In this document: positions 34,730 to 37,084 of the stretch, in pieces
How positions within the stretch are numbered: the first letter of the stretch is position 1
How the letters are laid out: each line of letters starts with the position of its first letter
Assembly: GCF_003334405.1 (NCBI RefSeq)
Contig: NZ_QOWM01000009.1
Direction: 5' to 3' (one strand)
DNA: 64,000 nt
Source: Escherichia coli
GTDB taxonomy: Bacteria > Pseudomonadota > Gammaproteobacteria > Enterobacterales > Enterobacteriaceae
The notes under the pieces: model-generated
Told to the model about the DNA's origin: nothing
Database searches by the model: none
What the model saw: the letters and a program-made list of their open reading frames with translations, nothing else
Made by a program: the position numbers and the translations under genes

Positions 34730-35178
34730 AATTATAATAAATATTATTGTTGAGTGTTATATTATTATTCCTGTGTGATACATTGAGCAAAGACGCGTTC
34801 ATCTTCGTCAAAGATATTATTAAATGCTGGTTTTGAAAAAAGTTCATCGGATAAGATATAGTCACGAAATAAGTATCTGCTAATATTTTATGATTTCTTT
34901 TTCAGAACGTCGAACGGGATTTTCTTATTTAAGATATCAGAATCTTATGATTCGGGTAAAATTCTAAATAAATCAACATGTCATTAAAATCATCATAGCC
35001 ATTAGCTATTTCGGCTAAAATAGAGACTACATGTCTTCGGTCCATCTCACTTAAGGAGTGTAGTTCCGTTGTAAGTTTTTCCATAGCTTGCACTGCTAAA
35101 TTTCGAACAAGGAATTTTCTGCTGGTAATCTCTAAAAAGATGGCATGGTTTACAATGATTTTTGTTTCCTTTTGATTA

Positions 35179-35673
35179 TTATGAACAACTGTCCATGATT
35201 TCGTTTAAGAATGAAGAGAAATCACTAAACGAACTGAATATATTTTCTGTGCCAATATTATCTCTAATTTCAAAAAAGTTACTTTTAATGTCATAAGTAA
35301 ATATTGAAATGCTATAATCCCCGATCACTAACCGTTCTTGTAGATCAGGGTTTATGAAATCATCATTATTTCTATAAAATTCATTTACGGCAAAAAGGTT
35401 TTTAACTGAAGGTTCTGGAATCGAGAGGCTAAATAATCGTAATCCATTAACTTCGAATCCATCCATTGCTCTTAAAAAAGTAAGATAATCAGGTTGATTC
35501 TTAAAAAGAATACTAACTTCATTACATAACTTCTCCAGGCAATTAGTTGAATTAGAATTAAATTCTATTTGGATTATACTTTCAATAAATGATTCCTTGA
35601 GCGGTGCTTCAAATGGATAGTCTAAATCATTCATCATTTTTATTAATTTATTTATTTGGGTTTTAGTCATCAT
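35179..35673 (-). CDS. yrhA: Putative immunity protein for YhhZ nuclease toxin
   Basis: 164 aa; start ATG overlaps yhhZ stop in ATGA (35670-35673); AT-rich; no transposase ORF or IS1 ends in this interval. Confidence 0.7.
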   Translation of the reverse strand: MMTKTQINKLIKMMNDLDYPFEAPLKESFIESIIQIEFNSNSTNCLEKLCNEVSILFKNQPDYLTFLRAMDGFEVNGLRLFSLSIPEPSVKNLFAVNEFYRNNDDFINPDLQERLVIGDYSISIFTYDIKSNFFEIRDNIGTENIFSSFSDFSSFLNEIMDSCS

Positions 35674-36848
35674 TTTGTGTGGTCCATAATATTTTTCATG
35701 GGAGGATAAATTGAGCCAGATGGAATGGCCCAGGGAGTGATTTTGCTTTCACCTACTAATATTCCCTTAGCTATTCGTGATTGCATGTTAGTAAAAACTT
35801 TATGATATGGTTCGTTTTCGATTAATACTAAATTTTCGAAATCATTAGTACCACCATCATCTAGAGATAGTTTATGGTGAACATTATAATTTAGAGGAAC
35901 ATTGCCCTTTCTCATTCTTAAAAGGTCTTCGGCGTTGAATCTTCCAGATGCTTCGGAGGTTTTTGCAAGTTTGATAAGAAAATTTTTTCTTACAGTTTTA
36001 TTAAACTCCTTTCGTAAGTTAGCTAAGTCTTTTGAAGGTCTCTTAATGTATATTATTTCTATTATGTCTATACCATCAAGAAGTTTTTGTTGACCTCTAA
36101 GTTTGCCTAAGTAACTATTTATTTCTGTATATGTATCAACATTAGAACGCTTTGTTAAAAGAATAGATGCTGTTGCTATCGCTATGCCCGCTGTTTTTTC
36201 ATTTAGTATTTGATCATAGCCTTTTATTGCATCTCCACCCAGTTTTTCCGCAGTATCTCTGAATCCTTCAATGTTCCCATTGTATACGCCACCAGCAGCA
36301 AGTAGCCTGCCAATAGCTTTGCTGTTTAACGTTTTGAAACGATTATTTGTTTGGTTTTTTGAATTTGGTAAAAACAAACGGTTATAATTTTCAGGGAGTG
36401 CCAAATAGCTGAACTCGGTATTTGCGATAAGATGTTGACAGAGGATAAATTCATAACTAATAGTTATTGTTTCTGTATCCAGTTGGTTTTCAATGATCTG
36501 GTGATGAATAGCCGATAAAAAAGCGCCTCTTAGTTGTATATAATAATACTTTTCCAATCTACCAAATCTATTTATTCGATAGAAGTCAAATCCCATAAAT
36601 AATTGTTCATTATTGTTAATGGAATTAATAAATAATGGAGTGCTTTTATCAATTAATTTACAAAATGTTATACCATGGAACTGTGAACCAAGCCCCGTAT
36701 TATTAATATTATTTAAGAGTGAGAATGTAAATATTTCATCCTCATGCCCGCTCTGCCAACGATTACCTGTAGACTCAGAAGTCCCACAACCTGCGGAGAT
36801 GCTTCCTTGTTGTTCTCCCGTTACTGTCAGGTAAACAATATTACTCAT
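35670..36848 (-). CDS. yhhZ: Hcp-domain protein fused to C-terminal HNH-type nuclease (polymorphic toxin, T6SS-effector-like)
   Basis: 392 aa; N-terminus MSNIVYLTVTGEQQGSISAG resembles Hcp; C-terminus NYNVHHKLSLDDGGTNDFENLVLIENEPYHK has an HNH-like His-Asn-His arrangement; strongly AT-rich. Confidence 0.75.
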   Translation of the reverse strand: MSNIVYLTVTGEQQGSISAGCGTSESTGNRWQSGHEDEIFTFSLLNNINNTGLGSQFHGITFCKLIDKSTPLFINSINNNEQLFMGFDFYRINRFGRLEKYYYIQLRGAFLSAIHHQIIENQLDTETITISYEFILCQHLIANTEFSYLALPENYNRLFLPNSKNQTNNRFKTLNSKAIGRLLAAGGVYNGNIEGFRDTAEKLGGDAIKGYDQILNEKTAGIAIATASILLTKRSNVDTYTEINSYLGKLRGQQKLLDGIDIIEIIYIKRPSKDLANLRKEFNKTVRKNFLIKLAKTSEASGRFNAEDLLRMRKGNVPLNYNVHHKLSLDDGGTNDFENLVLIENEPYHKVFTNMQSRIAKGILVGESKITPWAIPSGSIYPPMKNIMDHTK

Positions 36849-37084
36849 CCCTGAAAAGTCCTTTTATGGCATGCTATTTTATCAATGGCAATATTATGCT
36901 TGTTAATTGTTATTTATTTACTCCAGGAAATTGTAGGCGTATATATTAAAAAATAAAATATTACACTTTAGGAAGTAATTATGAGTTAAATCTCAATATA
37001 TGTATTGGGCAAATAAATACCTTAAAGGAAGGTATGTCGATTTTGAATGACACCCTTTTTCCATCTCAGAAAAAGGGCACTATC

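Follow-up and report, generated by a model that had tools for sequence, protein, structure and literature searches.

Which described systems come closest to yhhZ and yrhA, two adjacent genes between ggt and yhhY in the 64,000-nucleotide stretch of Escherichia coli DNA analysed here (contig NZ_QOWM01000009.1 of assembly GCF_003334405.1; the whole stretch is called the window below)? The nearest is Hcp-ET1/ETI1 (Ma et al., 2017), an effector and immunity pair of a secretion system of type VI (T6SS), which a 2024 preprint equates with an orphan Hcp-HNH gene and the gene downstream of it in strains 55989 and O104:H4 C227-11. According to reviews and that preprint (PMC6730261 among the sources), Hcp-ET1 is delivered by T6SS2, degrades DNA in the target cell and is neutralised by ETI1; the wording used there is 'predicted HNH-DNase activity'. 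YhhZ itself was called an 'evolved Hcp' in 2009 (Blondel et al., 2009; PMC2907695), and it constitutes group 32 of the His-Me finger superfamily.

How does the present locus compare? In E. coli 55989, the same ggt-yhhY locus encodes a YhhZ identical to the window protein at 391 of 392 positions and a YrhA identical at 162 of 164, and we strongly infer from strain, locus and architecture that YhhZ and YrhA are Hcp-ET1 and ETI1. The original prediction, a reading of the raw sequence, had presented the pair as a candidate for an under-characterised function. This does not hold: the genes are 99% identical to those of the 55989 locus, Hcp-ET1/ETI1 has been described, YhhZ has been classified, and the system is already known. 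The interpretation given to the pair is otherwise supported, and the observation behind it confirmed. At the ggt-yhhY site of the E. coli chromosome lies a polymorphic-toxin islet of horizontal origin, and we consider it highly probable that it unites a T6SS DNase effector of the Hcp-ET1 kind (yhhZ), its cognate immunity gene (yrhA) and an orphan Imm35 immunity gene (yrhB). The features on which this assignment is built are the following.

34408-37084, no strand: AT-rich accessory islet, bounded by the stop codons of ggt (34407) and of the convergent yhhY (37085).
35670-36848, minus strand: yhhZ (RefSeq name tssD; Hcp-ET1 type), open reading frame for a predicted Hcp-fused DNase effector of 392 amino acids.
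36408-36848, minus strand: Hcp/TssD tube-protein domain, residues 1-147 of YhhZ (TIGR03344, PF05638, PDB 3he1).
36336-36407, minus strand: variable linker, residues 148-171, with low conservation (0.46); it is only past this point that Hcp-type and DUF8093-type proteins become homologous.
36120-36335, minus strand: most conserved segment, residues 172-243 (mean conservation 0.82), with Gly/Ala-rich helices including the hydrophobic TAGIAIATASILLTK.
35694-36119, minus strand: colicin/pyocin-type HNH (beta-beta-alpha-Me) DNase domain, residues 244-385, from structure prediction, Foldseek and the family profile.
35790-35888, minus strand: HNH catalytic core, residues 321-353, YNVHHKLSLDDGGTNDFENLVLIENEPYHKVFT, with the invariant residues and the Pfam HNH match at 322-343.
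35670-35673, minus strand: ATGA in which the stop codon of yhhZ and the start codon of yrhA overlap, as the sequence itself shows.
35179-35673, minus strand: yrhA (ETI1 type), predicted cognate immunity protein of 164 amino acids, YrhA family (NF038335), SUKH-like.

That the 392-residue product begins with an Hcp-like half is borne out by three kinds of match. NCBIfam TIGR03344 covers residues 1-147 with 118 bits (E = 3.8e-34), well above its curated cut-off of 58.9 for the Hcp/TssD family; Pfam T6SS_HCP (PF05638) is hit with E = 2.5e-11, and the PDB structure of Hcp3 (3he1) with E = 2.3e-11. The HNH-type C-terminus needed support at the level of the family, since the single-sequence Pfam match is weak (E = 0.013, residues 322-343), and this support was found. 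The motif had been quoted with elisions, as VHHKLSLDDGG...N...ENLVLIENEPYHK, and residues 323-350 carry it in full, as VHHKLSLDDGGTNDFENLVLIENEPYHK. Within the core, H324, H325, D330, D331, G333, N335, N339 and H349 are invariant across 44 homologues, down to 34% identity. A profile built on the YhhZ family matches the DNase of ColE7 (E = 1.7e-4), pyocin S2, pyocin AP41, the ColE2 DNase and Cas8f-HNH, with the aligned region spanning both the motif and the helices that precede it. The AlphaFold2 (AF2) model, of which only residues 250-385 were used, has predicted local distance difference test (pLDDT) values of 82-96 over this range, where it shows helices, a beta-sheet and a beta-beta-alpha element (strands at 321-325 and 340-344 and a helix at 345-360, all with pLDDT above 90); the Hcp half is poor in the full-length model because the underlying alignment mixed Hcp and DUF8093 N-termini. 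For the nuclease domain, Foldseek ranks the pyocin S2 nuclease first (4qko_B, probability 1.00, 28% identity, root-mean-square deviation 2.5 Å across 77 columns), and the ColE7 nuclease (2jaz_B, probability 0.97) is likewise among the best matches. YhhZ has both the beta-beta-alpha-Me core and the conserved His-His/Asn/His residues by which members of the His-Me finger superfamily are recognised.

The gene downstream had been taken for a translationally coupled immunity gene. It does start within the stop codon of yhhZ, with the ATG of the ATGA at 35670-35673, opening a frame of 164 amino acids, and its product belongs to the NCBIfam 'YrhA family' (NF038335; E = 1.7e-35, 122 bits against a cut-off of 55). 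Its role is best argued from the company it keeps: in every locus examined, a YrhA relative is the next gene after the toxin domain, and this holds in five contexts. Identity to YrhA is 64% in Citrobacter, 57% in Enterobacter, 30% in Chimaeribacter and 27% on an IncHI2 plasmid (E = 3e-22), while the corresponding gene of a Bacillus phage matches NF038335 with 165 bits (E = 9.8e-49); the divergence of YrhA broadly tracks that of the toxin. The Hcp-ET effectors are characterised by a toxin domain fused to the C-terminal side of an Hcp domain and by an immunity gene directly downstream, and the pair shows this arrangement. The description that fits YrhA best is that of a divergent immunity protein, SUKH-like and possibly a member of SUKH, because one of 14 YrhA-family members matches Pfam SMI1_KNR4 (E = 7.5e-8), SUKH_5 and SUKH_6 (E in the range 1e-6 to 1e-8), and because the SMI1/KNR4 protein 3d5p is the best fold match of its model (probability 0.91, TM-score 0.47/0.56, E = 0.13). 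Some UniRef names likewise label YrhA homologues SMI1/KNR4. No sequence match was found between YrhA and any Im protein in the PDB, and it is not assigned to the four-helix Im7/Im9 family.

The same nuclease is carried by proteins with different N-termini. Homologues of YhhZ residues 148-392 fall into groups that are alike from about residue 172 onwards and unlike upstream of it, the toxin module being fused to four unrelated N-termini. The Hcp type occurs in E. coli and Citrobacter. The DUF8093 (PF26362) type, in proteins of about 380 residues, occurs in Enterobacter, Leclercia, Pantoea, Serratia, Erwinia and Chimaeribacter. The PIX domain for T6SS delivery (bioRxiv 10.1101/2023.07.16.549128) is a candidate counterpart of DUF8093; a literature search for the accession PF26362 found no mention of it. 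The DUF8093-toxin genes sit in orphan two-gene loci (L004-L006 and L008 among the loci retrieved, from Enterobacter and Chimaeribacter), and an integrase adjoins the one on the metagenome contig L004. The third N-terminus, of about 140 residues, is uncharacterised, unrelated to the others and found on plasmids; an hhalign comparison of DUF8093 with it detected no relation (probability 0.5%). A tblastn search gave 450 plasmid records that match 80% or more of the toxin module; among all 462 plasmids with a match, 433 are predicted to be conjugative. In the one plasmid locus examined, on an IncHI2A plasmid (NC_021845.1; L016, 3578-5155), a protein of 353 residues carries the YhhZ-type nuclease module at 47% identity and, together with its YrhA-family gene, adjoins traG and a lytic transglycosylase gene in the transfer region. 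The fourth type has an LXG domain (type VII secretion; E = 6.9e-57) and occurs in SPbeta-like Bacillus phages, such as vB_BsuS-Goe12 (L017, 1558-3915), where the C-terminus of a 628-residue LXG toxin is 44% identical to YhhZ 244-385; with its YrhA-family gene alongside, the cassette crosses the Gram divide. With its changing N-termini, the toxin domain is the cargo of a polymorphic toxin, and its partner is YrhA.

What, then, is the role of the most conserved part of YhhZ, which lies outside the nuclease? Segment 172-243 contains the most hydrophobic 15-mer of the protein (residues 218-232), and AF2 models residues 176-231 as helical, at a confidence that is low to medium. It is present in all Gram-negative versions examined and missing from the Bacillus LXG form, whose match is confined to YhhZ 244-385. 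The segment is probably an entry or translocation subdomain that brings the nuclease to the target cytoplasm.

The pair is set in a genomic island: the base composition deviates from that of its surroundings, and at one fixed site the segment is present in some genomes and absent from others. A sharp drop in GC (guanine plus cytosine) content between ggt and yhhY had been noticed by eye, and it is real: the span 34408-37084 has a GC content of 0.336, compared with 0.535 ± 0.021 (minimum 0.486; z ~ -9.7) for all windows of 2677 nucleotides elsewhere in the 64,000, and in windows of 400 nucleotides the values are 0.285-0.347 at 34600-37200 and 0.50-0.59 in ggt and beyond yhhY. The only other stretch below 40% (500-nucleotide windows) is 21401-22100, which by colinearity with an annotated genome is the livK-panM intergenic region. 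The original prediction was right about an AT-rich accessory segment and placed its start too far inward. It had been drawn as 34730-37084 (GC 0.318), while the islet starts at 34408 and holds four minus-strand genes, yhhZ, yrhA, yrhD and yrhB, the last two of which had been omitted. These two and the remaining features are as follows.

34445-34729, minus strand: yrhB, 94 amino acids, predicted orphan Imm35 immunity protein (Pfam Imm35, E = 4.6e-23).
34929-35084, minus strand: yrhD, 51 amino acids, annotated in RefSeq.
34415-34438, plus strand: GC-rich hairpin followed by a T-run, terminator-like, after ggt and between the convergent ggt and yrhB (10 pairs, 6 of them G-C).
36849-37084, minus strand: region upstream of yhhZ, presumed promoter region, AT-rich (GC 0.297).

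The borders are set by comparison with other alleles, in which homology stops at 34407 on the ggt side, reaching further inward where the hairpin or yrhB is shared, and is found again from 37083-37087 towards yhhY. Of 5426 complete E. coli genomes, 3758 (69%) carry 80% or more of 34300-37300, K-12-derived strains and BL21(DE3) among them; in the remaining complete genomes, the islet is precisely missing or swapped for other content. In the empty allele, as in ST131, some 60 bp and one hairpin separate ggt from yhhY. Other E. coli have an allele with yrhB only, and others again, such as strain 4FM (L011, 1977-3254), carry a 138-residue hypothetical gene overlapping a frameshifted DUF4225 gene. 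Such unrelated cargo suggests that small accessory cassettes have landed at this site repeatedly. An Hcp-toxin/immunity pair occupies the same ggt-yhhY site in Citrobacter koseri. In the window's allele, the islet is flanked only by short repeats at chance level, and no tRNA gene, integrase or transposase is annotated; we rejected a mobile-element reading for want of meaningful repeats and of an integrase. A scan of the islet for promoters and terminators stayed at the level of chance, with 14 promoter-like sites where shuffling gave 11.7 ± 3.1. In K-12, the promoters yhhZp5 and yhhZp7 are cited as drivers of the operon (PMC12428005).

The gene yrhB, of intermediate composition (GC 0.453), had no part in the original prediction's account of the islet. 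YrhB has been described in earlier papers as a heat-stable, chaperone-like protein; the E. coli literature that we searched offered no immunity reading of it. Imm35 pairs specifically with Tox-PL1 (Zhang et al., 2012; PMC3482391). In Pectobacterium, a homologue with 70% identity to YrhB overlaps the end of a CdiA of 5831 residues whose C-terminus is a Gln_amidase (Tox-PL1) domain. The Pfam match and this toxin adjacency together place YrhB in Imm35, the adjacency being seen in Pectobacterium and not in the window. Elsewhere, homologues occur in Limnobaculum, as two copies in an array of small immunity-like genes, and alone in Enterobacter. The window has neither a Tox-PL1 toxin gene nor cdiBA next to yrhB, nor was a hidden toxin remnant found between yrhB and yrhA, and with no Tox-PL1 toxin in the window, yrhB is an orphan immunity gene. 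Its survival alone in some strains fits its independence from the yhhZ-yrhA pair. YrhD has no match in NCBIfam, PADLOC or PHROGs and no homologue in any of the loci retrieved.

The surroundings are those of an ordinary E. coli chromosome. The window is colinear with strain 300709 (NZ_CP025903), from which it differs by 13 mismatches in 64,000 nucleotides, with rhsB', nik, liv, ugp and ggt on one side of the islet and yhhY, gnt, glg, glp and malT on the other. As had been proposed, it has no T6SS structural genes, judged by the colinear 300709 annotation, which lists core metabolism or transport genes. By the same colinearity, the 5' end of rhsB, a polymorphic-toxin (Rhs) element, runs off the window start (1-296, minus strand). 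The yhhZ islet is for this reason not the sole conflict-system gene locus here, and the statement that it is the only accessory-type system was nearly, though not entirely, correct.

How might the islet work? The Hcp domain of YhhZ would be built into the inner tube of the T6SS, probably in mixed rings with canonical Hcp, and the attached C-terminal cargo would be fired into neighbouring bacteria. There, segment 172-243 may aid the nuclease in crossing into the target cytoplasm, where the colicin/pyocin-like HNH domain is predicted to degrade the DNA. Translation of yrhA would be coupled to that of yhhZ through the ATGA, and YrhA presumably neutralises the nuclease by binding to it in producing cells and their kin. 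The immunity provided by YrhB would be a separate one, directed at toxins of the papain-like glutamine-deamidase type (Tox-PL1), to which some CdiA C-termini belong. Architecture, catalytic conservation, gene coupling and co-occurrence were computed here; DNase toxicity, neutralisation and delivery by T6SS2 come from the literature.

Several points weigh against this assignment, and they concern identity, domain calls and present-day delivery. Equating the pair with Hcp-ET1/ETI1 is done by strain, locus and architecture rather than by accession (AAF13_24945 and AAF13_24940 in STEC004); the comparison with 55989 covered the ggt-yhhY locus, outside which a second Hcp-HNH gene may exist; and the experimental claims for Hcp-ET1 (Ma et al., 2017, Virulence 8:1189) reach us second-hand, through the reviews and the preprint. 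To the weak single-sequence HNH match are added modest Foldseek E-values (3e-3), a YrhA model of medium quality (pLDDT 64) and the lack of any Pfam match to YrhA even at E ≤ 10. As to delivery, the aspV-linked T6SS cluster of strain 300709 (L026, 8589-31872) is a remnant in which tssM is truncated, tssJ and tagH are partial and the RHS genes are partial or frameshifted, with an IS1 and two hcp genes also present, and K-12 and B strains are reported to be without T6SS genes (PMC6730261). Moreover, in a K-12 derivative (L023, 1209-2351; PMC12428005), an IS1 lies inside yrhA, leaving a YrhA of 138 residues beside an intact yhhZ. That K-12 tolerates this disruption suggests that the toxin is silent or poorly active in its producer.

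These last observations lend themselves to an alternative that is compatible with the origin proposed above and that we regard as possible, if on balance doubtful: that the islet is now a stranded relic, its toxin undeliverable and its genes silenced by H-NS, with only yrhA and yrhB of use against relatives armed with a T6SS or with contact-dependent inhibition (CDI). With the aspV cluster decayed in so close a relative as 300709, and with the islet retained in K-12 derivatives and BL21(DE3) though K-12 and B are reported to lack the apparatus, delivery may be impossible in this lineage. Independently of the K-12 insertion in yrhA, strain PEC240 has an IS1 inside yhhZ itself (L024, 1571-3523); many clusters of truncated YhhZ sequences exist; and yrhB persists by itself at the site in some strains. 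In K-12, yhhZ and yrhA are listed among the 'promoter islands', in a table of the section on H-NS complex formation (PMC3661553). On the other hand, yhhZ is full-length in the window with its catalytic residues intact, full-length forms of 392 residues dominate the sequence clusters (13190 and 1877 members), and the evidence for T6SS decay covers the aspV locus of strain 300709 only.

A wider role than that of a T6SS payload is conceivable, in which the cassette would also be exported by, or associated with, conjugative type IV systems, segment 172-243 would be an entry module and the islet would persist mainly as immunity; taken as a whole, we judge this unlikely. On plasmids, the cassette could be exported through the conjugative type IV apparatus or act alongside it, for instance by killing or excluding competitors or non-recipients, and segment 172-243 could be a self-contained module for entry at the inner membrane. 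If this were true, the islet would persist, in lineages without a working T6SS, mainly as immunity against plasmid-borne or T6SS-borne attackers.

It is less probable still that the two genes form an intracellular module, akin to a toxin-antitoxin addiction system or an abortive-infection system against phages, rather than a secreted weapon. A two-gene operon of toxin and neutraliser with overlapping reading frames would suit such a module, as would the matches of the toxin domain to two PHROG families (E = 1e-56), the presence of the toxin-YrhA cassette on some 450, mostly conjugative plasmids and the retention of the islet in strains without T6SS. However, the N-terminus is a full Hcp domain that scores above the curated cut-off; the recurrence of the toxin domain on other secretion-linked N-termini, LXG included, is the hallmark of exported polymorphic toxins; K-12 survives the disruption of yrhA, contrary to what addiction predicts; and none of the four islet proteins matches PADLOC at E ≤ 0.01, so a defence-system reading is rejected. 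Least credible of all is that YhhZ is no more than an Hcp paralogue, structural or degenerate, whose HNH has become inactive, as the weak Pfam match and the early description of the HNH as 'degenerate' and of the protein as unlinked to T6SS function (Blondel et al., 2009; PMC2907695) might suggest, given the invariant HH/N/H residues, the confidently predicted nuclease domain resembling those of pyocin S2 and ColE7, the immunity gene linked to it wherever a locus was examined, and the DNase-dependent antibacterial activity reported in the later literature.

For the DNase effector with its cognate and orphan immunity genes, what is added here is descriptive: the exact borders and alleles of the islet, a domain map of YhhZ, the pairing of the nuclease with YrhA across T6SS, type VII secretion (LXG) and plasmid contexts, and yrhB as an orphan Imm35 gene. 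The accepted picture of polymorphic toxin systems is unchanged. The case illustrates that a reading of raw sequence can single out a weapon aimed at other bacteria, here a DNase fused to Hcp and accompanied by its immunity gene; what chiefly remains curious is that conjugative plasmids have the same cassette in their transfer region, and that YhhZ has a conserved segment outside the nuclease.

How far, finally, does the likeness to described systems extend? YrhB shares its Imm35 family with the immunity proteins of CdiA-CT/CdiI systems that have a Tox-PL1 toxin, while lacking a neighbouring toxin in the window. YrhA resembles the SUKH (SMI1/KNR4) immunity proteins in its place directly downstream of a nuclease toxin, but NCBI keeps the YrhA family separate (NF038335). 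Hcp-ET2 to Hcp-ET5, Usp of uropathogenic E. coli and the evolved VgrG and PAAR effectors share the plan of a T6SS structural protein, itself secreted, with a C-terminal toxin followed by one or more immunity genes, and differ in the toxin domain (Tle1 lipase, pyocin S3, colicin DNase or papain-like peptidase in place of the YhhZ-type HNH). The DNases of the E-group colicins and S-type pyocins (ColE7, ColE9, ColE2, S2 and AP41) are like YhhZ in the HNH core and the helices preceding it. This likeness is distant: they use receptor-binding and translocation domains where YhhZ is predicted to use Hcp and the T6SS, they have no counterpart of the conserved segment 172-243, and their Im proteins are four-helix proteins of about 85 residues, in contrast to the SUKH-like YrhA family with its 164 residues. 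With Hcp-ET1/ETI1 of STEC004, 55989 and C227-11, the context differs, in that the aspV-linked T6SS cluster of the closest complete genome has decayed; in sequence there is essentially no difference, and both present the same Hcp domain, HNH DNase and downstream immunity gene, away from the T6SS clusters.

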